Counted from the stretch's first letter, positions 31,718 through 58,811 are shown. The stretch: 64,000 nucleotides of DNA from an uncultured Verrucomicrobiae bacterium (GCA_963788065.1 CAWBFF010000008.1:1030784-1094783), one strand, 5' to 3'. Notes: generated from the sequence alone by a model not told the origin. Numbers and translations are program-made.

Positions 31718-31725
31718 AAGGGAGG

Positions 31726-31749: not shown

Positions 31750-31774
31750 ATATTGATAAATTGCTAACCAAAAC

Positions 31775-38789: not shown

Positions 38790-38794
38790 CGCGG

Positions 38795-39940: not shown

Positions 39941-40017
39941 CGACGGCCGGGCCGGGAATAAATTCGCCGACGCAGCTTGGGGCTTGTGTTGATACCGCCT
40001 TCTTCTAGCATGCGCCG

Positions 40018-40236: not shown

Positions 40237-40258
40237 ACTTTGCCGTAGCGGCTTTTCG

Positions 40259-40678
40259 ATGCGCGCGCACTCCGGGCAATTCACCATCCGCACGCGCGGC
40301 AAAGGGACTTACGAGATCACCGCGGAGGTGCAAGCCGTCGTGCAGAAATCCGGCGTGCGCATCGGGACGGCGACCGTCTTCCTCCAGCACACCAGCGCGA
40401 GCCTGATTATTTTTGAAAATGCCGACCGCTCGGCGCGGGTCGATCTCGAAGCGTACTTCGAACGCCTGGTGCCCGAAGACATCGATTACTTCACCCACAC
40501 CTCCGAAGGGCCGGACGATTCGACTTCGCACATCCGCATGGTGCTCACGCGCTCCAGCGAGGTGATTCCGATCGACGACGGCCGACTCCAACTCGGCACA
40601 TGGCAAGGCATCTTCCTCTTCGAGCACCGGCGCGCCGCGCATAGCCGCCGCGTGGTCGTCACCGTCCTCGGCGAATAG
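40259..40678 (+). CDS. YjbQ/UPF0047-family protein (secondary thiamine-phosphate synthase enzyme family)
   Basis: From ATG 40259: MRAHSGQFTIRTRGKGTYEIT...FLQHTSASLIIFENADRSARVDLE...PDDSTSHIRMVL...LQLGTWQGIFLFEHR. This is the typical YjbQ pattern. Confidence 0.85.
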   Translation: MRAHSGQFTIRTRGKGTYEITAEVQAVVQKSGVRIGTATVFLQHTSASLIIFENADRSARVDLEAYFERLVPEDIDYFTHTSEGPDDSTSHIRMVLTRSSEVIPIDDGRLQLGTWQGIFLFEHRRAAHSRRVVVTVLGE

Positions 40679-40691
40679 CAGCGCGCGTCTG

Positions 40692-42029: not shown

Positions 42030-42109
42030 CACGCACCTATAATCGCCAATCGAGCGCGCCGCCATCAAATGCGCGCGACGACATCACGGGCAGGCTATAA
42101 TTCGGGTTC

Positions 42110-44319: not shown

Positions 44320-45591
44320 ATGTTTGAGGATCCCGCGCAGTTTCCTTTCGCCGCAGAGTTGGAGCGAAACTGGGAGATCATTCGCGATGAAATGATCGCG
44401 CTGCGTTCTACCGGCTTTATTGCCTGGCCGGAGAAATCGCTCTACGGCGGCGACGGTTGGAGCACGTTTGGCCTTTACGCCTTCGGACAAAAGCAGGCGG
44501 CAAATTGCGCGCTTTGCCCGCGGACGACAGCTCTGGTGGAAGCGATCCCGGGACTGGCGATGGCGGGCTTTTCCCGACTCACGCCCGGCGCGCACATTAA
44601 GCCGCATGTCGGCTACGACGAATACTCGCGCTACGTCCTCCGTCTGCATCTCGGCCTGGAGACGAACGCGGACTGCGCGCTGCGCGTGGCTGACGAGACG
44701 CGTTCCTGGAGCGAAGGGAAGACGCTGATTTTTTGCGACGCGGTCGAGCATGAAGCGTGGAATCGCGGCACGACCACGCGCACGGTGCTGCTGCTCGATT
44801 TCAAAAATCCGCGCTACCGCTTTCGCCTGCTTAATCCGGCGTTGAGCGTCGAGTTCGTGGACTTCGTCGAAAAAGTGCGCTGGCCCGAGATGAGTTTCGG
44901 CGAACGCACCAAATGGCGGCTCTGGAAACTCGCGCATCTCGGTCGCAAACCGCCGCCCGCCGGGAAATCAGCGCATCTAAGCGCCGTCGTAAATCCGCGC
45001 GAGTCGTTCGCGGGTGAGGCCGAGGATGGGATCGAAGCGGCTGAGTTTCATCCCTTCCAGATTGGTGGTGTAATCGGCCAGGTTCCTCAGCAGCAACGCA
45101 TCCTCCTCTACGGTTTGCCAGGTGCGGCGGCGCATGAAACTGCCGAGATGCGGCCCCAGATGCCGAAGCACGGGCCAGTGCATTTTCAGGAAACCGAAGG
45201 TCGCCATCCGCGTGGTCGTTTCATCCTCGGGCACGAAATAGTGGATGACGTGATACTTGAACATCCGCTCGCGACCGGTCTGCGGATCGCTCCACCAATG
45301 CGTGACGACGGAACGCGGCGGATCGAAGTGGAAGGTGTAATCCGCGTGAAAATGATCGCCGCGCCGAACGCCTGCGCCGAGCCGGGTCCCGAGCGGCGGG
45401 CGTTTCGCTGGGCCATGGCCGCGGACGGTGACGAAGTCGTCCGTGGTCTCCAGCTCGATCGTGGCCTCGCTGGCGCGGGCGGGCTCGAAGCCGAAATGTG
45501 GGTGCGTCGTGACGGTGTGTTCGATCTCACTGAAGTTATCGATCACCAGTTGCAGCGGGGCGGAGAGGCGATTGAAGACCACGCCGAATGA
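44320..45591 (+). CDS. aspartyl/asparaginyl beta-hydroxylase (AspH/LpxO) family 2OG-Fe(II) oxygenase; only the first ~220 codons look genuine
   Basis: ATG 44320 lies 5 nt after the polB stop. Family pattern: WPEKSLYGGDGWSTFGLY, RLTPGAHIKPHVGYDEYSRYVLRLHLGL, WSEGKTLIFCDAVEHEAWN. The frame then stays open for ~610 nt antisense to the Rieske gene, with junk-like composition, so the true 3' end is uncertain. Confidence 0.6.
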   Translation: MFEDPAQFPFAAELERNWEIIRDEMIALRSTGFIAWPEKSLYGGDGWSTFGLYAFGQKQAANCALCPRTTALVEAIPGLAMAGFSRLTPGAHIKPHVGYDEYSRYVLRLHLGLETNADCALRVADETRSWSEGKTLIFCDAVEHEAWNRGTTTRTVLLLDFKNPRYRFRLLNPALSVEFVDFVEKVRWPEMSFGERTKWRLWKLAHLGRKPPPAGKSAHLSAVVNPRESFAGEAEDGIEAAEFHPFQIGGVIGQVPQQQRILLYGLPGAAAHETAEMRPQMPKHGPVHFQETEGRHPRGRFILGHEIVDDVILEHPLATGLRIAPPMRDDGTRRIEVEGVIRVKMIAAPNACAEPGPERRAFRWAMAADGDEVVRGLQLDRGLAGAGGLEAEMWVRRDGVFDLTEVIDHQLQRGGEAIEDHAE

Positions 45592-45963
45592 ATCCCAACC
45601 ATCCTTCACAAGTGTGGGGAGCGGCTGCTGGCTGCCGCGCGCGCGGACCCAGACGACTCCGCCCGCCTCGGCGCAATCGTAGCTCGTCGCGCAAGCGTGC
45701 ATCTTCGGCGCACTCGGACTCTCGCCTTCGCCGGTGCGGGCAAACGACCAACCGTGATACGGACAAATCACGCGCCCATCTTTCACGCGACCGGTGCTGA
45801 GTTTCATCCGCCGATGCGCGCATTTGTCCTCGAGCGCACCGAACTGGCCGTCGCCAGTGCGAAACAGCGCGAGGTGCTTGCCGTCGAGACTGACGCCGAC
45901 GGGGCGATCCCGCGGCAGGTCCCGACTGGCCATGATCGGATGCCAGAAATCGAGCCGGCTCAT
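44977..45963 (-). CDS. Rieske [2Fe-2S] non-heme iron oxygenase
   Basis: Rieske motif CAHRRMKLSTGRV...CPYHGWSF and mononuclear iron motif DNFSEIEHTVTTHPH. The start ATG (45963-45961) overlaps the PKS stop TGA (45962-45960) as ATGA. Confidence 0.9.
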   Translation of the reverse strand: MSRLDFWHPIMASRDLPRDRPVGVSLDGKHLALFRTGDGQFGALEDKCAHRRMKLSTGRVKDGRVICPYHGWSFARTGEGESPSAPKMHACATSYDCAEAGGVVWVRARGSQQPLPTLVKDGWDSFGVVFNRLSAPLQLVIDNFSEIEHTVTTHPHFGFEPARASEATIELETTDDFVTVRGHGPAKRPPLGTRLGAGVRRGDHFHADYTFHFDPPRSVVTHWWSDPQTGRERMFKYHVIHYFVPEDETTTRMATFGFLKMHWPVLRHLGPHLGSFMRRRTWQTVEEDALLLRNLADYTTNLEGMKLSRFDPILGLTRERLARIYDGA

Positions 45964-48900
45964 ACCGGGACGGTGCTTTTGCGGAATGCCGCGATCTTCG
46001 TCGGATCGAGATAAGTGCCTTCGTAGTTAAGCTTCGCGGCCGTGAACTCCAGCTCCGCGAGCGCCTGCCAATGGCGGCGTGCAGCGGCGGGCTCGACGAG
46101 TCCGATCGTCGGCGGAAGATCCGGGCGCTGCGCGGAAAGCAGCGCAGAAAGGATGCAGCCGGTGATGTCCTCCGAGCGCAGCATCGAGAAGAAGAGCTTG
46201 GGAATTTCCACCTGCAGTCCCGGCCCCGCGCCGGCGGGCACGTGGATGATGCGCGGCATTGGTTCGCCGCTTTGGACAAAGCCGCCTTCGGTAAACAGGA
46301 TGTCGCGGCTCTCGTGGAAGCGGGCAAACGCCGCCGGTCCGTTCAGGCAATGCGGCGAAGAGTCGTCCACGACCAACGTGCCGGGCGCGAGCCGGGTGAC
46401 GTCGAGCACGTTCTCCACATTGGTCGCGCCAATGATCACCGTCGCGTCGTAGAAATCCGCGCTTTGGTTTCCCGCCACGCGGATCGCTCCGCGGAAGCCG
46501 TGCTGCTCGCGCAAAGTGGTCTCCAATTCCGCGAACCAAGCCGCGCTGCGAAACGGATCGCACAGCCGCAGTTCTGCCGGGTGCGGGAGCACTTCGAGCA
46601 TGAGCTGCAACGCACCGAGGCCGATCGAACCGATGCCGTAAAACATCACCGTCTCCGTTTTTAGATCGCGTCCCGCTTCGTCGATAATCGCGACCAGATT
46701 GAGCAAAACAGCCGCAACGGTCGTGGCGTGGCCAGTCGTGACTGGCGCGAGATTCTGCTCTGCATTGCACGCGGCCTGCACCGTCGCTCCGTAATTCGTG
46801 GCCGAGGGAATGAGTCCGGTGAGTGCGATGCATTTCGCTCCGCAGGCAGACGCGTGGCCAATGGCCTCAAGCGCCAGCGGCAGGAGCGAAGCCTCGCCCG
46901 GCGTCACCTGCGCGGTCGTGAGCGGAAGCATGAAAACACCGACCGAACCGAGCGGCGTCTCCAGAATTAGATCGAGCGACACCTTGCCGCTGCCGCGGTG
47001 CAGCTGCGCAAATAATTGCTCGGGCGCCACGCCCGTTTGCTGGAAGAGCGTGATCGGCCACGGCATGAGCGCGCCGGCGGTGAGCGGCTTGATTTTGCCC
47101 GCGTGCACGAGGTCGAGCAGCGGCGTGGGTTCGGTGCGCAAAAACGGCGCGTCGATTTCGGGTTGAGCGCGCGGAGACGAGGTCGGCGCAGCGGCGGGCG
47201 CGGGTTCGACGGGTTCGGCGAGCATCTGTTTCAATACCCGCTCGGCGAGTCGTGCCGCAGTGGCGTCGGCATTAAGCGCGTCGATCGGCAGCGGGCAGCC
47301 GGAGTGATCTTCGAGGCGCACTTTTAATTCCACCGCCATCAACGAATCCATCCCGATCAGCGCGGCATTAGGGTCGATGTCCGCCGCGGCCATGCCGAGC
47401 GTGGCAGCAATCTGCGCGACCACGAGCCGGCAAACCGCATCCGCTTGTTCGCTCGGCGGAAGGCTGCGCACGGTTTCGCGCCAAGTGCCGGTGGTCGCGC
47501 CGAGGCCGCTCAGTTTTCCGCTCTGCGCGAGATCGCGGAAGACCGGTGAGCCCGTGAACTTCGTGCTGGTGCGCGCGAGTTTTTCCCAATCGACATCCAT
47601 CACACCGACCTGCGCTTCCGCGCTGACGATGAGGCGGGCGAGCGTGGCGAGCGCAGCTTTCGCCGGCACCGCAAGCACGCCGATGCCTTCGAGGTAGCGC
47701 TTGATCTCCGCCTTCTCCGCGGCGACGCCGACGTTATCGAGCTGGCCCCAGTTTATGCTGAGGCCGGGCAATCCGTTGGCGCGACGATGCTGCGCGAGCG
47801 CGTCGAGATAAGCGTTGGCGGCCGCGTAATTGGCATGCCCGGGCGCGCCGATCACCGACGAGATCGAGGAAAACAACACAAAGCAATCGAGCGGCAGCTC
47901 GCGCGTCTGGAGGTGCAGATTCCGGGCGCCATCGATCTTGGGCGCGAGCACGGCAGCGAGATCTTCCTGCGTCATGTCGGCGAGGAAGCGGTCACGCAAA
48001 ACCATCGCAGAATGAAAAACGCCGCGCAGCGGCGGCGACGATTTCTGCAACCGGCGCAAAGCCATCGCGAGCGACTTTTCCTTGGCGACATCACCGGCCA
48101 AAACGGCGACGGAAACGCCGCGCGCGCGCAGTTCGTCGATGATCGGTGCGTCTTGCGCGGAAGCGACGCCGCGGCGGCTGAGCAAGGCAAGATGCCGCGC
48201 GCCGCGGTCCGCAAGCCATTGCGCCGTGGCGAGTCCGAAGCCGCTCAACCCGCCGGTGACGAGGTAGGTGCCGTCGGGGTTGGGCCAGAATTCCGGCGGC
48301 ACTTCCGGGCGCTGCGCGGGATCGAATTCGAGCACGATCTTACCCACGTGCTGCGCCGCCTGCATACGGCGAAAGGCTGCGACGGTTTCACCCGCCGGAA
48401 AGCTCTGGCAGGGAATCGGCGAAAAATCTCCGCGCGCGAGGAACCGCCGGAGCGCGCGCTGTTCCTCGCCGGTGGTGGAAAGCACGGACGCGAGATCGAA
48501 CGCAAAGAACGACAAGGAACGCTGGAAGGCGGCGAGCGGGAGCGCGTTGTTTTCAAAGAGGTCGCGCTTCCCGATTTCGACGAAACGTCCGTGCGGCGCG
48601 CAGACGGCGAGACTTTTTTGCTGGAACGCGCCGGCGAGCGAATTGAGCACGACATCGACGCCACGTCCGCCGGTGTGGCGCAGGGTTTCATCGGCGAAAT
48701 CGAGCGTGCGCGAATCCATAACGTGCGCGACGCCGAGCGCGCGCAGGTAGTCGCGTTTTTCTTCGCTGCCCGCGGTGGCAAGCACGGTGGCGCCGAGGCG
48801 CTGCGCGAGTTGCACCGCCGCGAGACCGACGCCTCCTGCGGCTGCGTGAATGAGCACGGTTTCGCCGCGTCGCAGTCGCGCCAGCGTGTGAAGCGCGTGA

Positions 48901-49880
48901 TAAGCGGTGCCGAAGACGATGGGGATCGACGCGGCCTCTGCAAAGCTGAGCGACCCCGGAATTTTCCACATCGCTTCCGCGCTCGAGATGAGGTGGGAAC
49001 CGAAGGCGCCGCCCGCCATCGAGAAGCCCATCACACGATCGCCCTCGCGCAGTTTGCGCACGCCGCGGCCGACCCGCACGACGCGGCCGGCAAATTCATC
49101 GCCGAGATGTACGGCCTCGTCTTCGTTCAGCGGGTAGATGCCGAGCACCTTCATTAGGTCGCGAAAATTCAGGCCGGCGGCGGCGACTTCGACTTCCACT
49201 TCGCCCGGTCCCGGCGCGGTCCGCGCCCGCCCACGGAATTGCAGCGAATCGACGCGGCCCGTCTGCGCGATGTGCAGCGCCACCATCGGCGGAGGCGTGG
49301 CCGGTCCGGACAGGTCGGGTTGAATGTGCCGCATCCGGCGGACGCGGCGGCCGTCCTCGCGCAGCGCCACCTCGGGCTCGACTTCGGTGGCGCAGAGTTC
49401 GGCCAAGAGTGCTTCGCCGCACGACGCATCCGCGCAATCGACCAGCGCGAGTTGCCATTGCGGCTGCTCCGTCTGCACCGACCGTGCAAAGCCCCAGATC
49501 GCCGCGGGCGCCGGCGACAGGTCTTCGCTCGCTACGACCGCCTGCGCGTGGCGAGTGGCCACGACCCAGCGCGCGGGATTTTCGCTTCCGGGCAGCGCGA
49601 GTCGCGCTTGCGTGAGCGCGAGGAAAGCGGCGCAACCATCTGCGGTTTCGTCATCCCAATTCCAGAGATACAAAATGCGCGTCGGCAGTGGCCCGTAAGC
49701 CGCGAGTGATTTCCACAGGCGCTGCGCCCAATCGCTTCGGCGCAGATTCACAGACAGCGTTTCGCCATTCCGTCCGCCGTCCCGAAAAACCAGGGTCGAC
49801 GCAACGCCTTGCTCTCGCAGCGATGCCGCCACGGATTCGCCGAATTTTTCGCGGTCCGCGAAGATGAGGACGGAGCCGTG
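45960..49880 (-). CDS. PKS reading-frame segment 3/3: KR structural subdomain + enoylreductase + ketoreductase + ACP + C-terminal acyl-ACP-reductase-like domain
   Basis: Sense translation starts at ...HGSVLIFADREKFG (49880); ORF-track codons upstream of this, to 50312, overlap segment 2 and look non-coding. The ER has GLNFRDLM and LIHAAAGGVGLAAVQLAQ. The KR has YLVTGGLSGFGLA and GHANYAAANAYLDA. The ACP has LIGMDSLMAVEL (Ser codon about 47345). The last ~390 aa carry a GIGSIG Rossmann motif. Confidence 0.85.
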   Translation of the reverse strand, partial: HGSVLIFADREKFGESVAASLREQGVASTLVFRDGGRNGETLSVNLRRSDWAQRLWKSLAAYGPLPTRILYLWNWDDETADGCAAFLALTQARLALPGSENPARWVVATRHAQAVVASEDLSPAPAAIWGFARSVQTEQPQWQLALVDCADASCGEALLAELCATEVEPEVALREDGRRVRRMRHIQPDLSGPATPPPMVALHIAQTGRVDSLQFRGRARTAPGPGEVEVEVAAAGLNFRDLMKVLGIYPLNEDEAVHLGDEFAGRVVRVGRGVRKLREGDRVMGFSMAGGAFGSHLISSAEAMWKIPGSLSFAEAASIPIVFGTAYHALHTLARLRRGETVLIHAAAGGVGLAAVQLAQRLGATVLATAGSEEKRDYLRALGVAHVMDSRTLDFADETLRHTGGRGVDVVLNSLAGAFQQKSLAVCAPHGRFVEIGKRDLFENNALPLAAFQRSLSFFAFDLASVLSTTGEEQRALRRFLARGDFSPIPCQSFPAGETVAAFRRMQAAQHVGKIVLEFDPAQRPEVPPEFWPNPDGTYLVTGGLSGFGLATAQWLADRGARHLALLSRRGVASAQDAPIIDELRARGVSVAVLAGDVAKEKSLAMALRRLQKSSPPLRGVFHSAMVLRDRFLADMTQEDLAAVLAPKIDGARNLHLQTRELPLDCFVLFSSISSVIGAPGHANYAAANAYLDALAQHRRANGLPGLSINWGQLDNVGVAAEKAEIKRYLEGIGVLAVPAKAALATLARLIVSAEAQVGVMDVDWEKLARTSTKFTGSPVFRDLAQSGKLSGLGATTGTWRETVRSLPPSEQADAVCRLVVAQIAATLGMAAADIDPNAALIGMDSLMAVELKVRLEDHSGCPLPIDALNADATAARLAERVLKQMLAEPVEPAPAAAPTSSPRAQPEIDAPFLRTEPTPLLDLVHAGKIKPLTAGALMPWPITLFQQTGVAPEQLFAQLHRGSGKVSLDLILETPLGSVGVFMLPLTTAQVTPGEASLLPLALEAIGHASACGAKCIALTGLIPSATNYGATVQAACNAEQNLAPVTTGHATTVAAVLLNLVAIIDEAGRDLKTETVMFYGIGSIGLGALQLMLEVLPHPAELRLCDPFRSAAWFAELETTLREQHGFRGAIRVAGNQSADFYDATVIIGATNVENVLDVTRLAPGTLVVDDSSPHCLNGPAAFARFHESRDILFTEGGFVQSGEPMPRIIHVPAGAGPGLQVEIPKLFFSMLRSEDITGCILSALLSAQRPDLPPTIGLVEPAAARRHWQALAELEFTAAKLNYEGTYLDPTKIAAFRKSTVPV

Positions 49881-51243
49881 GCTCCGCGCGCTGCACCGGC
49901 GGCGGCTGCCGCTCCCACACGAGGCCGTAGCATTTGCGCTCGCGCGCGCTGGTCTTCGACGCGATGGCGAGCAGGCGCAAGCCCACGAAATCCGCGAGCA
50001 CGCCTCCGCTCTGGTCGTGCAACGTGAGATGCCCTTCGTGCGCGTTTTCCCAATGTCGGCCGAGACGCAGATGCGACCAAAACGTGTCGGGCAGCGGCTG
50101 GAAGACGCGCAGTTGGCGCAGCGAGACGATGACGACCGCGCGATCATCCTGACGCCGCCGGATGGCGAAACTTGTTTGAAAGGTGCTGTCGAGCGCGGGC
50201 GGGAAAAGCGTGTAATCCGGCCACGCGCGCTCGGTCGGCGATTGGATGGCGGCGACCACGGCCTCACCGTCGCGCAGGCGTAGCGAGGTGATGCCTTGAA
50301 ACATCGGCCCATAGACCTGACCGATCGCGCTGAGCTCGCGGTAGAGCGTCGCCGGCTCGCGTTCCTCGGGATATTGCTGGCGCAGCGCGTCGAGATCGGC
50401 GGGCGGCGGAGTGTGGAGCCGACCGGGCCGGTAAATCCCGTCGGCCTGGACTTCCCATTCGTCGGGATTGTCCAGCCGCGCGGTCAGGACTTGAAACGAA
50501 GACGAAGCGGGATCGAGTCGCACACACGTCGCCACGGGCCGGTCGTCCGGCAGGAAGAGCAGGTGGTGAAACTTGATGTGCTCAAAAAAGACCGTCGGCT
50601 CGCCGAGGTGTTCGCGCACCGCGGCGGTGGCCATTTCCAGATAGACCGCGGCGGCGACCACAGGCGAGCCGGTGATGCGATGATCGGTGAGCCACGGGAG
50701 GATGCGGACGTCGAACTGCCCGCACCAGGTCGGCTGCGGATGTGGCTGCCGATCGCCGAGCAGCGGGTGCGCGGGGACGCTGCGAAATTCCCGCGCGGCG
50801 CCGCGAGCTTCTCGCCAGAGTCGCTGGCGCTGCCATGGATAAGCGGGCAGGCGCAACGCCTGCGCCGGTCGTCGGTAGAGCGCGTGCCAGCGCACCGCCG
50901 CGCCTCTTTCATACAGCTTTCCGAGCGCGTGCAGCATGGTCGGTCGCTCGTCCTCGGCACGGCGCAGCGACGCCATTGCGACTGCGGGAGATTTTTCCGC
51001 GAGGGTAATTTCCGCCAGCGCCGCGGCCATCACAGGATGCGGGCCGATCTCGATCAGAGCGGTGAAGCCGTCGCGCAGCAATTGGGTGATGCCATCGGAA
51101 AAACGCACCGATTCGCGGACGTTGCGCCACCAGTAATCTGCGTCCATTTCAGCGCCGCGGACCGCCGCGCCGGTGACGGTGGAGATCATCGGAATCTTTG
51201 CTTCCGCGCCGGCGATTCCGCGCAAGGTCGCTGCGTAGACCAT
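49651..51243 (-). CDS. PKS reading-frame segment 2/3: C-terminal third of acyltransferase + dehydratase
   Basis: Begins VYAATLRGIAGAEAKIPMISTVTG...DYWWRNVRESVRFSDGI...IEIGPHPV, the AT C-terminus. The DH has HPLLG and LTDHRITGSPVVAAAVYLEM (His codon about 50682). After ...YGLVWERQPPPVQRAE the frame becomes junk until the stop at 49651. Confidence 0.85.
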   Translation of the reverse strand: MVYAATLRGIAGAEAKIPMISTVTGAAVRGAEMDADYWWRNVRESVRFSDGITQLLRDGFTALIEIGPHPVMAAALAEITLAEKSPAVAMASLRRAEDERPTMLHALGKLYERGAAVRWHALYRRPAQALRLPAYPWQRQRLWREARGAAREFRSVPAHPLLGDRQPHPQPTWCGQFDVRILPWLTDHRITGSPVVAAAVYLEMATAAVREHLGEPTVFFEHIKFHHLLFLPDDRPVATCVRLDPASSSFQVLTARLDNPDEWEVQADGIYRPGRLHTPPPADLDALRQQYPEEREPATLYRELSAIGQVYGPMFQGITSLRLRDGEAVVAAIQSPTERAWPDYTLFPPALDSTFQTSFAIRRRQDDRAVVIVSLRQLRVFQPLPDTFWSHLRLGRHWENAHEGHLTLHDQSGGVLADFVGLRLLAIASKTSARERKCYGLVWERQPPPVQRAEPRLRPHLRGPRKIRRIRGGIAARARRCVDPGFSGRRTEWRNAVCESAPKRLGAAPVEITRGLRATADAHFVSLELG

Positions 51244-53419
51244 TCTCGATGGCGTCCATTTGCGCGCTGTGGAAGGCGTATTCCGTTTGCAGGAAACGAC
51301 AGAAAATTTCCGCTGCGTTCAACGCTGTCGCGATTTCTTCCAGCGCTTTGGCGTCGCCGGAAAGTGTGACCTGCCGCGGCGCGTTGATGGCGGCGAGACT
51401 GACCGAGCCCGGGAATTTTCGCTCCCAGCTCTTCGCGTCCTCCGCCGAGATCGAAGCCGCAAGCATTCGGCCCTGGCCGTGCGTGGTCGCCTGCCAGCGG
51501 CTGCGCGCGATGATGATGCGGAAGATTTCGTCGAGATCGAAAATGCCCGCCGCCCACGCTGCCGCCGCTTCGCCGACGCTGTGGCCAAGGACCGCGGCGG
51601 GCTCGATTCCCCATGCGCGCCAGAGCTCCACGAGGCTTGCTTGCAGCGCGAAGAGCGCGGGCTGCGCGATGTCGGTGTGGTGCAGGCGCGACGCCGATTC
51701 GTCCGCGAGGAGTTCGTCGAGCAGCTTCGGGCCGCCGAGTTTTTGGCAGGTCGCGTCGCACCGTTCCCAAAATTCGCGGACCACTTTTTCCTGATGGAAA
51801 AGCTGGCGCCCCATCGCCCACCATTGCGGACCCTGGCCACTAAAGATGAACGCGATCTTCGGCCGCGCCGTTGTCGTCGTCGCCGGATCGCGAACGTTCT
51901 GAAGTTGCGCGCGCAAGTCCGGGAGCGACTGCGCGACCAGCGCGTGCCGCAGCGGGTGATGCGATTTGCCGAGCGCAGCCGCCGCGCAAAAATCGCTCAG
52001 CGAAAGCTCCGGATTGGCGTCGATGAACTTCCCGTAGGCCGCCGCGTATTCCGCCAGCGCCTCCGGGCTGCGCGCGGAGAAGGGAAAGAGACACGGCTCG
52101 TTGTCAGGCTGCTCGCTGGTTGGTAATACCTCCGGAGCAGGAGCCAGCAATGCGTGGACGTTTGAGCCTCCGAAGCCGAAGGAATTTACGCCGACGAGCG
52201 GTGTTCGACCGTTCGTGGAAGGCAACGGAGTGAGCTGCGTGGGAACCTCTACGCGATCGAGCGGGAGCAGCGCGTTTGGTTCGTCGAAATGGAGATTCGG
52301 CGGGACCATTCGCTGCTCCAGCACGAGGATGGCTTTGATCAAACCCGCCATGCCGGAGGCCGGTTCCAGATGCCCGATGTTCGTCTTTACCGAACCGATC
52401 AACAGCCGTTCACCCGCCGGACGACCTTCCGACAAAACCTCCGCCAGCGCGCGCGCTTCGATCGGATCGCCGACGGGCGTGCCGGTGCCGTGCGCTTCCA
52501 TGTAGACAACGTCCCGCGCCGCGAGCCCTGCGCTTTGCAGCGCCTCGCGGATCATCGCTTCCTGCGCTTCCTGATTCGGCACAGTGAGCCCGCCGGCCGA
52601 ATGGCCATCCTGATTTGAGGCCGTCGCGGCGAGCAGCGCCCGCGGTTTCAACCCAAGCGCCTGCGCCGTTTTAAGCGGCATCAGGACAACCATCCCCGCA
52701 CCCTCCGAGCGCACGTAACCATCCGCGCTGGCGTCGAAAGCCCGGCAACGCCCGCGCGGCGAGAGCATGTGCGCCTGGCTGAATCCGATACCGCCCTCAG
52801 GCGTGAGCACGGCGTTCACGCCGCCGACCAGCGCGTGCTCGCATTCGCCCGACCACAGGCTGCGCGCGGCGAGATGCAACGCCATGAGCGACGACGAGCA
52901 CGCCGTATCGACGGCAAAACTGGGGCCGTGGAAATCGAAAAGAAACGAGATCCGATTCGCGGCGATCGAGAGCGCGCTGCCGATGTTGGTGTAGCGATCG
53001 ATCGAAGAGGCATCGCGCCGATGCAGCGTGGGGTATTCGCTGTGCGAGATCCCGATGAAGACTCCGGTGCGCGACCCCGCAAGCGTTTCCGGCGGCAGCG
53101 CCGCATCTTCCAGCGCTTCCCAAGTCGTCTCCAGGAGCCAGCGATGTTGTGGGTCCACGCACGCCGCTTCCCGTGGCGCGATGCCGAAAAACGCCGCGTC
53201 GAAAGAGTCCACATTTTCAACGAAGCCGCCCCAGCGCGAAACCATGCGCCCCGGCGCGGCGGAGTTCGGATGGAAGAAGCGCGCCGCGTCCCAGCGCTCC
53301 GCCGGCACCTCGGTGATCGCATCCACGCCATCGCGCAGCAGATTCCAAAACGCTTGCGGCGAGTCTGCGCCGCCGGGAAGACGACAGGCCATCCCGACAA
53401 TCGCGAGGGGTTCGAACAT
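51149..53419 (-). CDS. PKS reading-frame segment 1/3: ketosynthase + N-terminal two-thirds of acyltransferase
   Basis: ATG 53419 (MFEPLAIVGMACRLPGG). The KS Cys is in DTACSSSL (codon 52900-52898), with EAHGTGT and NIGHLEPASG. The AT has FIFSGQGPQWW, GHSVGE (Ser codon about 51580) and YAFHS. After ...QMDAIENG the frame turns to Arg-rich junk and stops at 51149. Confidence 0.85.
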   Translation of the reverse strand: MFEPLAIVGMACRLPGGADSPQAFWNLLRDGVDAITEVPAERWDAARFFHPNSAAPGRMVSRWGGFVENVDSFDAAFFGIAPREAACVDPQHRWLLETTWEALEDAALPPETLAGSRTGVFIGISHSEYPTLHRRDASSIDRYTNIGSALSIAANRISFLFDFHGPSFAVDTACSSSLMALHLAARSLWSGECEHALVGGVNAVLTPEGGIGFSQAHMLSPRGRCRAFDASADGYVRSEGAGMVVLMPLKTAQALGLKPRALLAATASNQDGHSAGGLTVPNQEAQEAMIREALQSAGLAARDVVYMEAHGTGTPVGDPIEARALAEVLSEGRPAGERLLIGSVKTNIGHLEPASGMAGLIKAILVLEQRMVPPNLHFDEPNALLPLDRVEVPTQLTPLPSTNGRTPLVGVNSFGFGGSNVHALLAPAPEVLPTSEQPDNEPCLFPFSARSPEALAEYAAAYGKFIDANPELSLSDFCAAAALGKSHHPLRHALVAQSLPDLRAQLQNVRDPATTTTARPKIAFIFSGQGPQWWAMGRQLFHQEKVVREFWERCDATCQKLGGPKLLDELLADESASRLHHTDIAQPALFALQASLVELWRAWGIEPAAVLGHSVGEAAAAWAAGIFDLDEIFRIIIARSRWQATTHGQGRMLAASISAEDAKSWERKFPGSVSLAAINAPRQVTLSGDAKALEEIATALNAAEIFCRFLQTEYAFHSAQMDAIENGLRSDLARNRRRGSKDSDDLHRHRRGGPRR

Positions 53420-53472
53420 CCGGAGTTGATTACAGCGAAGCGCGCGGAGGATATCACGCAGAAAAATCGCTC

Positions 53473-54540
53473 GTGCTGCGCGCGTTGACGCTGGCGGGAG
53501 CGCTCTGTTATGAACGGGCTGCCGTGATTTCACGTTGCGCCCTATTTGTGTTCTGTAGCCTTTCGTTAGGTTTGGGCGGGTGTGGCAAACGGGAGGCGGG
53601 GACGAATCGAGCGGGTGAGCGCACGGCGGTGACGGCGCTCGGACGCGTCACGCCCGGGCGTGCGGCTATCGCGATCGCGGCGCAACCGGGGCTGCGCGTG
53701 CTGAGTTTGCGAGTGAGCGACGGCGCGAAAGTGAAGACGGGCGATGTGCTCGGAAATCTCGATACGTTTCCATTGCGGACTGCGGAACGGGACGCGGCAG
53801 AGGTGGCGGTGCGGGAGGCGCGCGAGCGACTGGAGACGGAGACGCGCTACGGCAACGCGCAACTGGAGCAGAGCAAAGAGGCAGTGCGCGCGCTCGAGAT
53901 CGCGCTCGAACGCGAACGCCGCGAGTTGACGCGTTTCAGCTCCATGAAGTCGGTCATCGAAGGGAAACAGCTCGATGATCAAAAATTCGCCGTCGATAGC
54001 CGCGAAGCGGAATTGGCCAAAGCGCGGGCGGAGCTGCGCGCGACGGAAGCGGCGCTCGCGCGCGTGCCGAGCATGGTCGCAGTGGCGTCGGCGGAGGCAC
54101 GGCTGAAGGTGGCGGAGGCGCAGCTGGAGTTAACCATTCTCCGCGCGCCGATCGATGGCGAGGTCTTGAAGGTTTTCACTTACCCTGGCGAGCGAATCGG
54201 GAACGATCCGATTTTGCGCATGGGGAACACGAACGACATGCACGTGATCGCGGAAGTGCATGAGACGGATGTGGGCGCGGTGCGGGTGGGTCAGCGGGCG
54301 ACAATTACCAGCGACGCTCTACCCGAGCCGGTCGGCGGCGTGGTCGAAGAAGTCGGCGCGCTCATCAACAAGAACGACGTCCTCGATGTGGATCCGCGGG
54401 CGGACAAGGACAAGCGCATCGTGGAAGTGCGGATCAAGCTCGATCAGTCGGACGCGATCGCGCGCTTCACGCATATGGAAGTGGCGGTGCGGATCGATCT
54501 GAAAACACCAGCTGCGGAAAGCGCGACCGCGGCGCGATGA
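53473..54540 (+). CDS. devB: DevB-family membrane fusion protein of ABC exporter (HlyD-like)
   Basis: Lipoprotein-like signal ALFVFCSLSLGLGGC. The DevB-type opening is VTALGRVTPGRAAIAIAAQPG..RVLSLRVSDGAKVKTGDVLGNLD, followed by a long coiled-coil and a beta-barrel tail. The start is GTG 53473 or GTG 53524. The stop overlaps the next ATG (ATGA). Confidence 0.85.
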   Translation: MLRALTLAGALCYERAAVISRCALFVFCSLSLGLGGCGKREAGTNRAGERTAVTALGRVTPGRAAIAIAAQPGLRVLSLRVSDGAKVKTGDVLGNLDTFPLRTAERDAAEVAVREARERLETETRYGNAQLEQSKEAVRALEIALERERRELTRFSSMKSVIEGKQLDDQKFAVDSREAELAKARAELRATEAALARVPSMVAVASAEARLKVAEAQLELTILRAPIDGEVLKVFTYPGERIGNDPILRMGNTNDMHVIAEVHETDVGAVRVGQRATITSDALPEPVGGVVEEVGALINKNDVLDVDPRADKDKRIVEVRIKLDQSDAIARFTHMEVAVRIDLKTPAAESATAAR

Positions 54541-55670
54541 AGACGCCGCTCGCCTGGCGAAACGTGCTTCAGAGCAAGGTGCGCTCGGCCGTGGCGTTGG
54601 GCGGCATTTCGCTCGCGATCCTGCTCATTTTCATGCAGCTCGGCTTTTACGCCGCGGCTGGGAGCAGCGCGATCAACGTCTATGAAGCGCTCGACTTCGA
54701 TGTGCTCGTGCTTTCGCCGCAATACGTTTTCCTCGCGCGCGCGGCGCAGTTTCCGCGCAATCGCCTGGAGCAGGTGCGCGCAATCGAGGGAGTGACGGCA
54801 GTGGCGCCGCTCTGGATCGGGCTGGGGGAATGGCGGAACACGGAAACGCGCGAGCGTTGGAATGTGCTGACGCTCGGAGTGGATCCGGCGCAGCGACCGT
54901 TTCGCGACGCGGCGGTGAACGATCAGTTGCCGTTGTTAAAAGTGCGTGACACCGCCTTGAGCGACCGACTGTCGCGGCCGGAGCAGGGACCGATCGACGT
55001 CGGCGCGGTCTCCGAGTTGCAACACCATCAATTGCGCATCGTCGGTCGTTATGGCATCGGCGCGGGCTTCGTCGCGGGCGCCACTCTCGTGACTGGACGC
55101 GATACGTTTCTCGATGTCTTTCGTGACTCGGCTTCGGCGGAGCGGGTCGGTCTGGGATTGGTCAAGCTGGCTCCGGGCGTGTCGCCCGCGAAGACGGCGG
55201 CGGAGATGCGGCGAATCCTTGCGCCCGCGGCGACTGCGGCCACTCGCGCGGAATTGTCGGCGGCCGAGCAGCGATTCTGGCTCAAGGTGAAACCGATCGG
55301 CATCATGTTCACGACGGGCGTGCTGATCGCGTTCATCGCGGGCGCGGTCATTCTCTACCAGGTGCTGGCGAGCGAAGTGCAGAATCGGCTGCGTGAATAC
55401 GCCACGCTCAAAGCGCTCGGCTACGACAATCGCTACGTCTATGGAGCAATTGGGCGGCAGGCGTTCATCTTCTGCGGGCTGGGGTTCGTGCCGGCGTTTT
55501 TCGGCGCGATCGGCTTATATGCGCTCCTGCGCCAGCATGCGCTCGTGCCGGTGGGGATGGAATTCGGCCGTGCGGTGGGCGTTTTTTTGCTGACGGGATT
55601 GATGTGTTTTAGTGCCACCTTTCTCGCGGTGCGGAAGTTGCGCGCGGCTGATCCGGCCGAGCTGTTCTAG
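54537..55670 (+). CDS. devC: DevC-family ABC exporter permease (FtsX/MacB-type fold), copy 1
   Basis: Opens MKTPLAWRNVLQSKVRSAVALGGISLAILLIFMQLGF. A large periplasmic loop is followed by three C-terminal TM helices with YATLKALGYDNRYV. 377 aa. Confidence 0.85.
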   Translation: MKTPLAWRNVLQSKVRSAVALGGISLAILLIFMQLGFYAAAGSSAINVYEALDFDVLVLSPQYVFLARAAQFPRNRLEQVRAIEGVTAVAPLWIGLGEWRNTETRERWNVLTLGVDPAQRPFRDAAVNDQLPLLKVRDTALSDRLSRPEQGPIDVGAVSELQHHQLRIVGRYGIGAGFVAGATLVTGRDTFLDVFRDSASAERVGLGLVKLAPGVSPAKTAAEMRRILAPAATAATRAELSAAEQRFWLKVKPIGIMFTTGVLIAFIAGAVILYQVLASEVQNRLREYATLKALGYDNRYVYGAIGRQAFIFCGLGFVPAFFGAIGLYALLRQHALVPVGMEFGRAVGVFLLTGLMCFSATFLAVRKLRAADPAELF

Positions 55671-56816
55671 ATGAGCGCGCGCCGCACACCGTTGGCTTGG
55701 CGGAACATCGCGCACAACAAAGTCACGCTCGCGGTTTCGATCGCGGCGATCACCTTCGCGGTCCTGATCATGTTCATGGAAGTCGGCTTCCTGAACGGCC
55801 TCTACGATAGCCAGACCAACGTGCTGCAGTCCCTCCGCGCGGAGCTGGTGATGGTGAGCCGTTCGCTCCACATCTTCAATACGCACGAAACTTTTCCGCT
55901 TGCCAGGCTGGAGCAGGCCGCGGGGCTGGCGGGGGTGAAGCGCGTCTCTCCGCTTTACCTGGAGGATCTGGCGAGCGACCTGCGCAATCCCTCCAACGGC
56001 GTGCGCAACGGTATCCGGGTACTGGCGTTTGATCCGGATCGTCCGGTCTTCGAAGGGGGCACGCTGCAGCGGCTGGCGGAACGGTTGCGCACGCACATGA
56101 CGATCCTATTCGACGAACGCTCGCGCGCATTTTTCGGACGCTTCGGGGAGGGTGAAAAGGCAGAGCTGGCGGATCGCGCTGTGACCGTAGCCGGCACTTT
56201 CGATCTCGGGCCGGACTATTATTACGACGGGAATATTCTGACCAGCGTCGACACCTTCTTTACCCTTTTCCCTTTCCGGCACCGGGGTGATGTTTTCGTC
56301 GGCGCCATCGAGCTAGAGCCCGGCGCATCGGCTGATCGGGTACGGGATAAGTTGAACGCGCTCGGCGCACCGGAAGCGGAGATTCTCCGCAAAGATGAAA
56401 TCGTGGCACGTGAAAAAGCGACCTGGCAGAAGGCGACGCCAGCCGGGTTCGTTTTCACGATGGGCGTCGCGGTCGGATTCGTGATCGGCATCTTTATTTG
56501 TTACCAAATTCTCTATACCGATATCGCCGATCACCTCCCGCAACTTGCGACCATGAAAGCGCTCGGTTATCCGAATCGCGCACTCGTTAGGCTGGTCCTG
56601 CTGCAGGCCGTAATGCTCGGCATGCTCGGTTTCGTGCCGGCGCTAATGACGACGTTCGGGCTTTATTCCATCCTGACCGCGCTGACCGGGATCGTGACAA
56701 AACTAACTCTCGGGCGCGTGGCATTAGTCCTTTTGCTGACCATCGGCATGTGTCTCATCTCCGGTCTGCTCGCCGTGCGCAAAGCCCTCGCGATCGATCC
56801 GGCGGAATTGTTCTGA
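55671..56816 (+). CDS. devC: DevC-family ABC exporter permease, copy 2 (paralog of 54537-55670)
   Basis: Same layout as copy 1: TPLAWRNIAHNKVTLAVSIAAITFAVLIMFMEVGF ... LATMKALGYPNRALV. ATG 55671 directly follows the TAG of copy 1, and its stop overlaps the devA ATG (TGATG). Confidence 0.85.
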   Translation: MSARRTPLAWRNIAHNKVTLAVSIAAITFAVLIMFMEVGFLNGLYDSQTNVLQSLRAELVMVSRSLHIFNTHETFPLARLEQAAGLAGVKRVSPLYLEDLASDLRNPSNGVRNGIRVLAFDPDRPVFEGGTLQRLAERLRTHMTILFDERSRAFFGRFGEGEKAELADRAVTVAGTFDLGPDYYYDGNILTSVDTFFTLFPFRHRGDVFVGAIELEPGASADRVRDKLNALGAPEAEILRKDEIVAREKATWQKATPAGFVFTMGVAVGFVIGIFICYQILYTDIADHLPQLATMKALGYPNRALVRLVLLQAVMLGMLGFVPALMTTFGLYSILTALTGIVTKLTLGRVALVLLLTIGMCLISGLLAVRKALAIDPAELF

Positions 56817-57922
56817 TGCTGCCGCTGGACGAACTCGAACCCGCGGTGCGCGTCCGCGCGCTCAATCACTTTTTCGGTGGAGGCGAAAACCGGAAGCAGG
56901 TCCTTTTCGAGAACAATCTCGATCTGCAGCCGGGGGAAATCATCATCATGACGGGCCCGTCGGGGTCGGGCAAAACGACTTTGCTCACGCTCATCGGCGC
57001 ACTTCGCTCCGTGCAAGCCGGCGAGATCCACGCCCTTGGTCGCGAGTTGTCGAAGCTGACTCCGCGCGAGCTGGTGGAGGTGCGACGTGGGATTGGCTTT
57101 ATCTTTCAAGCGCACAATCTCTTCGACTCGTTAACCGCGCGCGAGAACGTGAACATGGCGATCGAGCTCACGCTTTCCGATGCGGGCGAGCGCGACCGCC
57201 GCGCGAAGGAAATCCTCGAGCGCGTCGGGCTTGGCCATCGGACGGAACACAAACCACAGGCGCTTTCTGGCGGGCAACGCCAGCGCGTCGCGGTGGCGCG
57301 CGCGTTAGTCAACCGGCCGAAGCTCGTCCTGGCCGATGAGCCGACGGCAGCGCTCGACAAGGAGTCCGGGCGGGACGTGGTCAATTTGCTGCAGAATCTC
57401 GCGACGGAGGAGCGCGCCACGATTTTGCTCGTGACGCATGACCCGCGGATCCTCGATGTGGCAGATCGCATCATCAACCTCGTCGATGGCCGGATCGTTT
57501 CCGATGTGGCGGTGAAAGAGGCCCTGCGCCTGGCGGAGTTCCTGCGCAAGTGTCCGCTCTTCGCCGAGCAACCGCCGGCGATGCTGGCGGAATTTGCCGA
57601 GCGGATGAAGCGAGAGACCTTCGCGGCGGACGAGGCCATCATTCGGCAAGGCGAGGTGGGGGATAAATTTTACGTTATCGAATCCGGCGTGGTGGAAGTG
57701 CGGGGCGAGAAGGATGGCGTGCCGTTTGCCGATGTCACTTTGCGGAGCGGCGACTTTTTCGGCGAAGTCGCTTTGTTAACCGGCGCGCCGCGGAACGCTA
57801 CGGTGATCGTGCGCGAGCCGACTCGGGTGCTGACCCTGGCGAAGGAGCATTTCGATGAAGCGCTGCAGCGGAGCAAGACGCTTGAAGAGCAACTGCGCGA
57901 TGTCCTTTACCGGCGCACTTAA
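56816..57922 (+). CDS. devA: DevA-family ABC exporter ATPase fused to a C-terminal cyclic-nucleotide-binding domain
   Basis: DevA-like region: RVRALNHFFGGGENRKQVLFENNLDLQPGEIIIMTGPSGSGKTTLLTLIGALRS, RRGIGFIFQAHNLF, LSGGQRQRVAVARAL, LVLADEPTAALD. The C-terminal ~125 aa (about 57533-57919) carry the cNMP phosphate-binding cassette FFGEVALLTGAPRNATVIV. Confidence 0.9.
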   Translation: MLPLDELEPAVRVRALNHFFGGGENRKQVLFENNLDLQPGEIIIMTGPSGSGKTTLLTLIGALRSVQAGEIHALGRELSKLTPRELVEVRRGIGFIFQAHNLFDSLTARENVNMAIELTLSDAGERDRRAKEILERVGLGHRTEHKPQALSGGQRQRVAVARALVNRPKLVLADEPTAALDKESGRDVVNLLQNLATEERATILLVTHDPRILDVADRIINLVDGRIVSDVAVKEALRLAEFLRKCPLFAEQPPAMLAEFAERMKRETFAADEAIIRQGEVGDKFYVIESGVVEVRGEKDGVPFADVTLRSGDFFGEVALLTGAPRNATVIVREPTRVLTLAKEHFDEALQRSKTLEEQLRDVLYRRT

Positions 57923-57929: not shown

Positions 57930-58811
57930 CTAAGCCTTGGCGTAGATGCCGATGAGCGGACGCGGAGACGGTTTCTTGTTTTGGAAGTCGCTCACGAAAC
58001 CGGTCTTCGTCCGGATCTCGACATGGCCGGCCGCGCGGCGTGAACCATAGACCAGCACTGCGCCGACTGGCGCCGCGTAGGGATCGCGGATGGGCAACTT
58101 CTTGAACCCATATTCGCGCACCAATTCTTCGCCCGCTTGCTTGGCGTACGCTGATTTTGGATAAGTCGAAATCACCCCGGAAGCGAGGAGCGCATTCTTT
58201 ACGTAAGCCCAGCAGCGCGCTTTCGAATGCGCGTGGGCGCGTTCCTGGGCGATGGAGGCGGCGCGGGTCAGCTTCGGGCTGATGCGCGGATCGATTTTGG
58301 CCAGCGGATAAATGATCCGTCGGGTCTGGAAACGATCCACCACGGGCGCAGCGACGGTGCGACCGGCGCGATCTGTAAAAGTGAATTGCCTGGGCGCGGG
58401 CGACTGCGCAGCTGGCGACCGCGCGGGCACTGGAAGCGCTCTCGCCGGAGGAGCGCTAACGATCTTTTTCAACGGCGCAGACGCTTTGCCCGGCGCAGGC
58501 GGAATCTTGGAGGCGGCGGACGTTTTGGACACGATGACTGGAGGTGCCGGCTTTACCACTGGGAGAGCGCGCATCGCGGTGCTGGTGTCGTCTTTCGGCG
58601 CGGGCGACGTGAGATCAGGCACCGGGGTGCGAGGCAGCGCGGGCGCGGTGTTAACCGCGACCAAAACGTCCGCACTGGGCGCGGTCTTGGAAGCGGGAAC
58701 CGCGTCGGGTTTGGGCTTGGCCGGTTTGGGGGCGGTGAAGATCTCAACGTCCGCGCCGAAGACGGACCCAGCCAAAAAGCAGCCGCAAAGGCAAAGGACA
58801 AATCGGCTCAC
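57930..58811 (-). CDS. secreted Pro/Ala-rich protein with C-terminal papain-fold (CHAP/NlpC-P60/Tae4-like) Cys-His-Asp domain
   Basis: GTG start and signal peptide MSRFVLCLCGCFLAGSVFG. A ~170-aa Pro/Ala-rich region precedes ARCWAYVKNALLASG ...(63 aa)... GHVEIRTKTGFVSDF, with Cys...His...Asp spacing typical of small cell-wall amidases. The family call is tentative. Confidence 0.55.
   Translation of the reverse strand: MSRFVLCLCGCFLAGSVFGADVEIFTAPKPAKPKPDAVPASKTAPSADVLVAVNTAPALPRTPVPDLTSPAPKDDTSTAMRALPVVKPAPPVIVSKTSAASKIPPAPGKASAPLKKIVSAPPARALPVPARSPAAQSPAPRQFTFTDRAGRTVAAPVVDRFQTRRIIYPLAKIDPRISPKLTRAASIAQERAHAHSKARCWAYVKNALLASGVISTYPKSAYAKQAGEELVREYGFKKLPIRDPYAAPVGAVLVYGSRRAAGHVEIRTKTGFVSDFQNKKPSPRPLIGIYAKA

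Follow-up and report, generated by a model that had tools for sequence, protein, structure and literature searches.

The stretch of DNA analyzed here, referred to as the window, comprises 64,000 nucleotides from an uncultured Verrucomicrobiae bacterium (GCA_963788065.1 CAWBFF010000008.1:1030784-1094783). The locus under study, at 44320-57922, carries genes for a polyketide synthase (PKS) and a Rieske oxygenase on the minus strand, and for an AspH-type hydroxylase and a devB-devC-devC-devA exporter operon on the plus strand. A preliminary description had listed these features, and every one of them was found again where it had been placed when the locus was analyzed with Pfam, NCBIfam and inspection of the gene junctions. 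The features of the locus are as follows.

44320..44982, plus strand: AspH/OlsC/LpxO-family 2-oxoglutarate-type hydroxylase, here AspH (PF05118, Asp_Arg_Hydrox, 3.7e-46)
44977..45963, minus strand: Rieske [2Fe-2S]/VanA_C-type non-haem-iron monooxygenase (PF00355 5.9e-22, PF19112 6.3e-11)
45960..53419, minus strand: single-module, fully reducing type I PKS, KS-AT-DH-(psiKR)-ER-KR-ACP-TAD, about 2480 amino acids (aa) if repaired (Pfam, NCBIfam)
52283..53413, minus strand: KS domain with DTACSSS, EAHGTGT and KTNIGHLE (PF00109 5.2e-96, PF02801)
50932..51850, minus strand: AT domain with GHSVGE and YAFHS, split by a first frameshift (PF00698 positions 2-215 in one frame, 204-306 in the next)
49957..50769, minus strand: DH domain (PF21089, PF14765)
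48330..49211, minus strand: ER domain (PF08240, PF00107, PF13602)
47739..48272, minus strand: KR domain (PF08659 4.9e-67)
47235..47426, minus strand: ACP domain with GMDSLMAVELK (PF00550)
45978..47150, minus strand: TAD, a putative terminal amidation domain for off-loading, with a fold like that of acyl-ACP reductase (AAR) (PDB 9e4x/9e4s, E 2e-77)
53420..53472, no strand: divergent intergenic region between the PKS and devB genes, delimited by start-codon candidates
53473..54540, plus strand: DevB-family membrane-fusion protein with lipobox LGLGGC (TIGR02971, 217.8 bits, cut-off 129)
54537..55670, plus strand: DevC-type (FtsX/MacB-type) permease 1, DevC1 (TIGR01185, 278.6 bits, full length)
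55671..56816, plus strand: DevC-type permease 2, DevC2 (TIGR01185, 286.1 bits)
56816..57922, plus strand: DevA-family ABC ATPase with a C-terminal cyclic-nucleotide-binding (cNMP-binding) domain (TIGR02982, 332.4 bits, cut-off 295.8)

Relatives were collected by a contig scan with the TAD alignment among GTDB species representatives, which gave 217 relatives, and 80 loci were kept; loci are cited below by their L numbers. The window proteins were compared with all kept loci by tblastn, and open reading frames (ORFs) were clustered over eight loci. Only PKS-TAD, AspH, DevB, DevC1, DevC2 and DevA were conserved in the clustering. The divergent layout of the window, with the Dev operon reading away from the PKS gene, recurs in L004, L005 and L006. 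A convergent layout was found in L001 and L003, where the PKS gene points toward an opposing operon that reads DevB, DevC1, DevC2, DevA with its cNMP-binding domain, OEP and AspH. Compared with the window proteins, the orthologues were 63-72% identical (Dev), 83-87% identical (AspH) and 63-70% identical (PKS). Since two gene orders are found at 63-72% protein identity, the linkage has survived a rearrangement. This synteny indicates that the PKS, AspH and the exporter form one functional locus, as the preliminary description had proposed, with linkage kept in the Chthoniobacterales-type loci L001 and L003-L006. That description had also named what would speak against it, namely an exporter with no PKS linkage in relatives or a PKS with no intact orthologues. 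Neither was encountered, since the linkage is kept and intact PKS genes are present in L004 (JBEEHH010000021, 2527 aa), L006 (CAVSRQ010000008, 2615 aa) and L007 (a single high-scoring segment pair, HSP), as well as in the more distant L077 (2543 aa).

Accessory genes differ between the loci: a Rieske gene is present in the window, L002 and L005, a Sulfotransfer_3 gene in L002, L006, L007 and the Opitutales PKS-TAD loci, and an OEP gene in L001 and L003. A Sulfotransfer_3 gene was seen directly behind PKS-TAD in L013, L031, L032, L038, L041, L042, L044, L046, L050, L056 and L057. It occupies this position in nearly all Opitutales-type loci (L053 is without it) and in the Chthoniobacterales-type loci L002, L006 and L007, which hints at a sulfated product there. 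L002 (9836-16129) encodes only ER-KR-ACP-TAD, without an upstream KS-AT-DH, followed by the sulfotransferase gene, the Rieske gene (60%) and a convergent AspH gene; this may be the remnant of a truncated synthase or result from faulty assembly of the nanopore contig.

An AspH gene behind PKS-TAD was also found outside the clade, in two proteobacterial metagenome-assembled genomes (MAGs), L063 and L077. In L077 (a Casimicrobiaceae MAG, 2343-16353), a fatty-acid desaturase gene is divergent to a series of genes that encode PKS-TAD, AspH, the ATPase of an ABC transporter, a permease of the FtsX type and a LolA-like protein. L077 thus has the same combination of synthase, hydroxylase and envelope exporter, built with a non-orthologous pump. 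In Anabaena sp. PCC 7120, the DevB/DevC paralogues hgdB/hgdC lie inside the hgl island, all5343-all5359 (PMC6161253), so that there is a precedent for a Dev-type transporter clustered with a lipid PKS. The preliminary description had placed exporter and hgl synthase at separate loci in such cyanobacteria, which holds for devBCA itself but not for hgdB/hgdC (PMC6161253). These data bear on the possibility that the Dev-type pump is a mere neighbor, functionally unrelated to the PKS. The intact pump beside a broken PKS in the window and in L005 would fit this explanation, as would the lack of Dev genes within 10 kb in L007 and in the Opitutales and Planctomycetes PKS-TAD loci. However, five relatives retain the linkage in two orders at the identities given above, L077 has an FtsX-type pump in the equivalent place, and hgdBC provide the precedent, so a chance association of pump and synthase is highly improbable.

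The genes of the locus are closely spaced at several junctions. The PKS stop codon and the start of the Rieske gene overlap in an ATGA at 45960-45963. The DevB/DevC1 junction is also an ATGA overlap, the DevC1/DevC2 junction is TAG-ATG and the DevC2/DevA junction is TGATG; the latter gives a DevA start at 56816 and a 368-aa protein, equal in length to the L003 orthologue. Between the PKS ATG (53419) and devB lie 53 nt if devB starts at the GTG at 53473, or 104 nt if it starts at the GTG at 53524. A scan of this divergent region for a sigma-70-like promoter was negative, as was a terminator scan downstream of devA, and alignment of the intergenic regions of the four divergent loci (window, L004-L006) revealed no conserved element. 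The host had been described as non-cyanobacterial, and this agrees with its closest named FtsH matches, which are from Chthoniobacterales at no more than 93% identity. The closest PKS homologues are in MAGs of Chthoniobacterales and Verrucomicrobiae.

Next to the domains listed, Pfam also matched a KS-AT linker between KS and AT, so the KS-AT-DH-ER-KR-ACP architecture of the preliminary description stands. The catalytic motifs of the PKS are all intact (DTACSSS, EAHGTGT, NIGH, GHSVGE, HPLLG, AAGGVG, YAAAN and GMDSL), and the module has no loading module or didomain. The KS scored 822 bits with the generic type I PKS model of NCBIfam and 241.6 bits with PfaA (TIGR02813, cut-off 1010.1). An identity as a heterocyst-glycolipid (HGL) synthase of the HglE/PfaA-like kind was rejected on these scores (242 versus 822 bits) and because the synthase is a single polypeptide. 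The same KS-AT-DH-ER-KR-ACP order, likewise without a loading module, is found in iterative PKSs of the MAS/Pks2 type (for example, Pks2, NF041183), and MAS/Pks2-type models rank among the best NCBIfam matches for all three fragments of the window PKS. With NF041183, however, the fragments scored 593.5, 161.7 and 451.7 bits, far under the equivalog cut-off of 2400. The window PKS also differs from the Pks2/MAS type in ending in a TAD and in coming from a different phylum. The Phe in its AT motif, YAFHS, suggests a malonyl rather than a methylmalonyl extender.

The 400-aa tail of the PKS after the ACP had no Pfam or NCBIfam match. Residues 13-403 of this tail (391 residues) align to the TAD of CarI (PDB 9e4x/9e4s) with an E value of 2e-77 and 38% identity, over both subdomains. 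The domain is positioned directly after the ACP (47235-47426) and is followed by the stop at 45960. Cys344 was invariant in 11 homologues, as were the Asp-Asp-Ser and the Pro of the DDSxP loop, the T-T-G-H of the TTGH motif and the three Gly of GxGSIG, while the Ser and Ile of the last motif were nearly invariant. In the alignment with CarI, ITGCILS of the window corresponds to IMGCAFS at the catalytic Cys, and VVDDSSPHC to IVDDSGPHC at the nicotinamide loop. The second position of the DDSxP loop is Asp in the window TAD, as in CarI. AAR carries Gly at this position, and the mostly verrucomicrobial cluster 3 carries Tyr (bioRxiv 10.1101/2024.10.28.620694). Most Verrucomicrobiota TADs were placed in that Tyr cluster (bioRxiv 10.1101/2024.10.28.620694), from which the window TAD differs by its Asp.

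Among the 757 RefSeq TAD homologues, those that belong to four out of the five biggest clusters are mostly C-terminal on nonribosomal peptide synthetase (NRPS) proteins (bioRxiv 10.1101/2024.10.28.620694). In the TAD-terminated assembly lines of CarI (carmabin), VatR (vatiamide) and HcaD (hectoramide), a 400-aa terminal domain with two subdomains likewise stands directly behind a carrier protein. The catalytic Cys, the Asp-Asp-Ser-x-Pro nicotinamide loop and TTGH are shared between CarI and the window, at the stated identity over the full length. In contrast, the window TAD follows the ACP of a fully reducing PKS and would act on a fatty acyl chain, whereas CarI-type TADs follow the PCP of an NRPS module and act on a peptide. 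Rankin et al. proposed amidative release, as carmabins, vatiamides and hectoramide end in primary amides, and found that the CarI TAD binds NAD(H), not NADP(H), with its invariant Cys within reach of the carrier-protein arm (bioRxiv 10.1101/2024.10.28.620694). The Asp beside the nicotinamide N1 was suggested to favor NAD+ over NADH, and a reduce-then-reoxidise route via an aldehyde was also considered (bioRxiv 10.1101/2024.10.28.620694).

The preliminary description had called this tail a reductase-like release domain and predicted a hydroxylated long-chain aldehyde or alcohol-type lipid of the outer envelope; such a product would resemble the heterocyst-glycolipid aglycone. The fold part of that assignment stands, since the CarI TAD is closest in fold to cyanobacterial AAR and the two have an analogous catalytic Cys; the considered aldehyde route and an exporter of the DevBCA family are also consistent with this model. 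However, the closest characterized relative of the tail is the CarI TAD, not a classical reductase. The two match end-to-end at 38% identity, while TAD and AAR share 9-17% (bioRxiv 10.1101/2024.10.28.620694). The Asp next to the nicotinamide N1 is retained where AAR has Gly, and the CarI TAD binds NAD(H), not NADP(H). The type I PKS assignment of the KS over PfaA and the lack of a conserved glycosyltransferase also argue against a heterocyst-glycolipid-like product. An aldehyde or alcohol is thus not the best prediction, and the reductase model as a whole is unlikely. Because the residues of the window TAD match those of CarI, release as a primary amide is the more likely outcome, by a chemistry that is putative for CarI as well.

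The exporter had been assigned to the DevBCA family, and the family models bear this out, with DevB and DevA above the curated cut-offs and both DevCs at full length just under theirs. On NCBIfam, DevB scored 217.8 bits with the DevB model compared to 90 with EmrA and 36 with MacA, and DevA scored 332.4 bits with the DevA model compared to 206 with LolD and 191 with MacB. The DevCs span all of TIGR01185 (2-380 of 380), 4-12 bits under the equivalog cut-off of 290.35, and this devC family is the only one in NCBIfam matched by either protein at E<=0.001. Orthologues were 63-67% identical for DevB and 66-68% for DevC2; for DevC1, identity was 66-72% in the four loci with an unbroken gene and 60-78% per fragment in the frameshift-ridden L001. 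DevC1 and DevC2 share only about 33% identity, and separate orthologues of the two are present in all five related Dev loci. This suggests a DevC1/DevC2 heteromeric permease, unlike the single-DevC, presumably dimeric arrangement of Anabaena. The cNMP-binding domain of DevA (57614-57871; PF00027 2.9e-21) has a sequence like that of a phosphate-binding cassette (PBC), FGEVALLTGAPRNAT. The DevA-cNMP fusion is also present in the L003 orthologue (368 aa), and in L001 it is split by a frameshift. The C-terminal domain suggests export gated by a cyclic nucleotide.

In the operons of L001 and L003, the OEP (TolC-like) gene lies between devA and AspH. Remnants of a TolC/OEP gene or of a sulfotransferase gene in the window were looked for by tblastn and rejected. 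When compared to DevBCA-HgdD/TolC and hgl of Anabaena, the window exporter belongs to the same NCBIfam families and has the same devB-devC-devA order, and the TolC-type partner appears in the L001 and L003 operons. The synthases differ: that of the window is one KS-AT-DH-ER-KR-ACP polypeptide with predicted TAD off-loading, the hgl synthase is multi-protein, and no glycosyltransferase is conserved among the loci of the window type. The window pump further differs in having two DevC paralogues (Anabaena has one), a cNMP-binding DevA and a predicted lipoprotein DevB, and in its phylum, Verrucomicrobiota. MacAB-TolC has in common with the Dev pump an FtsX-type permease, a separate or fused ATPase, a periplasmic adaptor and a TolC duct, and the mechanism of the two is probably alike (PMC6161253). 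In contrast to MacAB, permease and ATPase are separate genes in the window and the permease is duplicated, and scores with the MacA, MacB and LolD models are well under those with the models for Dev proteins.

The preliminary description had placed the Rieske oxygenase with the synthase and named AspH as a possible further member, and the relatives separate the two. AspH belongs to the locus by conserved linkage; it is 83-87% identical to its orthologues in L001-L004 and L006, far above the PKS (63-70%) and Dev (63-72%). The Rieske gene is not a conserved partner, with orthologues in L005 (86%) and L002 (60%), at the same position behind the TAD. Judged by this distribution, AspH is a conserved core partner of the PKS, and the Rieske protein is an accessory limited to the window, L002 and L005. 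The best NCBIfam model for AspH was OlsC with 123.3 bits (cut-off 450), and LpxO gave 83.2 bits (cut-off 500). AspH shares Pfam family PF05118 with the LpxO/OlsC acyl-chain 2-hydroxylases and has a lipid-related genomic context. At about 220 aa it is shorter than the OlsC (259) and LpxO (297) models, and its closest solved structures are AspH catalytic domains. The Rieske protein has the motifs CxH...CxxH and ExxHxxxxH in its translation (CAH...CPYH and EIEHTVTTH), and its closest solved structures are NdmA/B, SxtT, DdmC and KshA.

The preliminary description had left implicit that the PKS is not one ORF; two frameshifts were found in it. As sequenced, the PKS occupies ORFs in three frames, at 51149-53533, 49651-51243 and 45960-50312. 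A tblastn search with the intact L004 PKS gave three collinear HSPs in three frames, with exactly two frame changes. The two sites are as follows.

51217..51223, minus strand: frameshift site 1, +1 nt, inside the AT fold, not in a homopolymer (GCG-C-GGA versus the GCG-GGA implied by the orthologues)
49872..49905, minus strand: frameshift site 2, net +1 nt, in the GC-rich DH-ER linker (the HSP frame switches between 49903 and 49871)

At site 2, the count is 43 nt, although an unbroken frame requires a multiple of 3. A product translated from the KS start would terminate at 51149, within the AT domain, and the three PKS segments are free of in-frame stops. A natural split into three proteins was considered and rejected, since break 1 falls inside the AT fold (at about 215 of 319 of PF00698) and the orthologues are continuous. 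The stop codon of AspH was also lost: its frame is open to 45591, antisense to the Rieske gene, while orthologues at 83-86% identity stop after 221-222 aa. The tail-to-tail junction of L002 has a palindromic CTAG that terminates both AspH and Rieske genes; in the window, CTAA keeps the Rieske stop and the AspH TAA is one base out of frame, with this lesion placed at 44978. Based on these lesions, the window locus is predicted to be inactive as sequenced, since the synthase cannot be made.

About 30 other genes of the window were full length on Pfam, and the 4.4-kb Dev operon and the Rieske gene were unbroken, which indicates that the lesions are concentrated in this locus. The same pattern was found, more strongly, in L005 (MAG MFD02581.bin.2.55, a 1.6-Mb contig, 3700-11200), which has the closest PKS relative. 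At least 11 frame switches occur in its PKS, and the DevB, DevC1, DevC2 and Rieske genes are each one unbroken HSP. The L005 pattern may reflect parallel decay of the synthase or a context-specific assembly error. No frameshift position is common to the PKS genes of the window and L005, and decay in a common ancestor was not demonstrable.

These results could be explained by a genuine recent inactivation of the window PKS, which we somewhat favor, or by residual indel errors of a long-read metagenome assembly, a nearly even prospect in which both PKS frameshifts and the AspH stop loss would be artefacts and the locus would be functional in the organism. Assembly error is consistent with the intact catalytic motifs and with the lack of in-frame stops and deletions, and all three lesions are net +1 and lie in GC-rich DNA. 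Related contigs have metaFlye-style names, and two of them, L001 and L084, are indel-ridden, with broken Dev, ABC-2 and isoamylase genes. The genome of the window appears as a contig of 1.48 Mb. In addition, all frame breaks of the window and L005 that were placed precisely have a GCGC no more than 10 nt away (8/8), which would fit a motif-specific basecalling error. However, the chance of all three events falling within the 8.2 kb of PKS and AspH, out of about 41 kb examined, was about 0.008. The non-homopolymer context of site 1, the full-length state of the other window genes, Dev operon and Rieske gene, and the recurrence of the pattern in L005, with its at least 11 PKS breaks compared to none in DevB, DevC1, DevC2 and the Rieske gene, also argue against assembly error.

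As background for the GCGC motif, a fraction of 0.34-0.37 of the positions in the window and L005 PKS regions lies no more than 6 nt from a GCGC. Its density is equal in the unbroken Dev genes and the PKS, and as a cause of the frameshifts the motif was therefore judged suggestive and indecisive. The proximity of GCGC to the breaks may reflect a methylation-linked basecalling artefact or a mutational hotspot.

The surroundings of the locus were compared with a congeneric contig, L084 (FtsH 97%). The two share 84-91% DNA identity by blastn over window positions 23599-42077 and nothing beyond. At the site of the block, L084 (1-2444) has genes for malate synthase and isocitrate lyase in place of PolB-AspH-Rieske-PKS-Dev. 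The boundary is as follows.

42078..42109, no strand: synteny breakpoint versus L084 (collinearity ends at 42077; the PolB-AspH-Rieske-PKS-Dev block begins at 42110)

The block is accessory, being absent from the syntenic site of the congener. At its edge, a tRNA search was negative, the window's Pfam matches include no integrase, and no att-type island boundary was identified. A family-B DNA polymerase gene (PolB) at 42110-44314 starts 33 nt past the end of collinearity, with AspH 5 nt after it; a PolB gene beside the cluster was found in none of L001-L083.

A patchy accessory locus that is absent in a congener and apparently decaying in two lineages would also fit a dispensable specialized metabolite better than an essential part of the envelope. 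The product could then be a secreted signaling or antagonistic small lipid (e.g., a free hydroxy fatty amide) and not a structural lipid of the outer envelope, with the Dev pump serving for secretion or self-protection. The tailoring genes differ between lineages (Rieske or sulfotransferase), as in typical biosynthetic gene clusters. MacB-type pumps such as MacAB-TolC also export small molecules. On the other hand, a LolA-like outer-membrane lipid-sorting protein is part of the L077 exporter and suggests the outer membrane as the destination, and the DevBCA pump known in most detail deposits a lipid of the envelope (PMC6161253). We regard a secreted small lipid as possible but doubtful.

Taken together, the results point to a conserved orphan verrucomicrobial locus for the synthesis, hydroxylation and export of a lipid, with an unusual TAD as its off-loading domain and a modified Dev pump. 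It is probably an accessory locus of Chthoniobacterales (Verrucomicrobiota) that makes, hydroxylates and exports a PKS-derived fatty lipid, possibly an amide, and whose window copy is inactive as sequenced. In an intact copy, the lone KS-AT-DH-ER-KR-ACP module would extend an acyl primer by malonyl units, most likely in the iterative manner of MAS/Pks2, and reduce each unit fully, to give a saturated acyl-ACP. The invariant Cys of the TAD would take over the chain and off-load it, a primary amide being more likely than an aldehyde. The soluble AspH/OlsC-like oxygenase would hydroxylate the chain in analogy to OlsC and LpxO, and a Rieske monooxygenase or a sulfotransferase would provide extra tailoring in some lineages. 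A MacB-type tripartite pump would then move the product out of the inner membrane, either to the cell surface or into the medium. Its parts would be DevB as a lipoprotein, DevC1 and DevC2 as a heteromer, DevA gated by cNMP, and a TolC-type channel whose gene lies elsewhere. A more specific version, in which PKS-TAD with AspH is an undescribed route to a hydroxylated long-chain primary fatty amide that represents a new class of bacterial surface lipids, sulfated where a sulfotransferase is present, with amidative release by the TAD and transport to the outer envelope of Chthoniobacterales by the cNMP-gated DevC1/DevC2 pump, is quite unlikely to be right in all its parts.

Several observations weigh against the main interpretation. 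Most other PKS-TAD loci (Opitutales, Gemmataceae) lack AspH and Dev, which makes the complete set specific to one clade. The conserved core defined by ORF clustering includes no nitrogen donor, no glycosyltransferase and no reductase partner for the Rieske protein, and no TolC-type/OEP homologue was found in the 64-kb window by tblastn, although a copy may exist elsewhere in the genome. Amidation by a TAD has never been shown in vitro, as the published work comprises a structure, NAD(H) binding and cross-linking with no turnover (bioRxiv 10.1101/2024.10.28.620694). No product is known for any member of the locus family. Intact motifs without in-frame stops fit sequencing indels as well as very recent mutation. 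Finally, the Dev operon is intact where the PKS is broken, in the window and in L005; the pump might not depend on the synthase and was perhaps retained for another substrate.

Our literature searches returned nothing relevant on DevBCA linked to PKSs in Verrucomicrobia or Planctomycetes, nor any later functional work on TADs. As far as we could find in the literature, the combination of a fully reducing PKS-TAD and a Dev pump is undescribed. If the proposed function of the locus is correct, a one-module fatty-acyl PKS-TAD with intact orthologues (L004, L006) would be a much easier test system than the cyanobacterial NRPS megasynthases for the TAD, a widespread off-loading domain of unsolved chemistry. 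The model of a PKS lipid with a Dev-type tripartite exporter would also extend beyond heterocystous cyanobacteria to abundant, poorly cultured soil Verrucomicrobia, and the duplicated DevC and the cNMP-binding DevA would be two new Dev features. The window cluster is probably non-functional as sequenced and unsuited as a reference copy, and the intact orthologues are the copies worth study.

Other genes of the window were noted in passing. A 293-aa ORF at 57930-58811 on the minus strand is convergent on devA and has a coding-like GC content at third codon positions (GC3), with no Pfam match and no counterpart in the related loci. On the minus strand at 16999-19484, a circularly permuted ATP-grasp gene (PF14403/PF04174) and an Alpha-E domain gene are both full length. 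At 21400-24224 on the minus strand, a gene for a 637-aa FAD-dependent Trp_halogenase-like protein has an LpxL-type lipid A acyltransferase gene (PF03279) immediately downstream. Finally, a 1240-aa protein encoded at 35067-38786 on the plus strand has an ABC ATPase and ABC-2 membrane domains behind about 500 N-terminal residues without a Pfam match, and its counterpart in L084 is broken into four ORFs.

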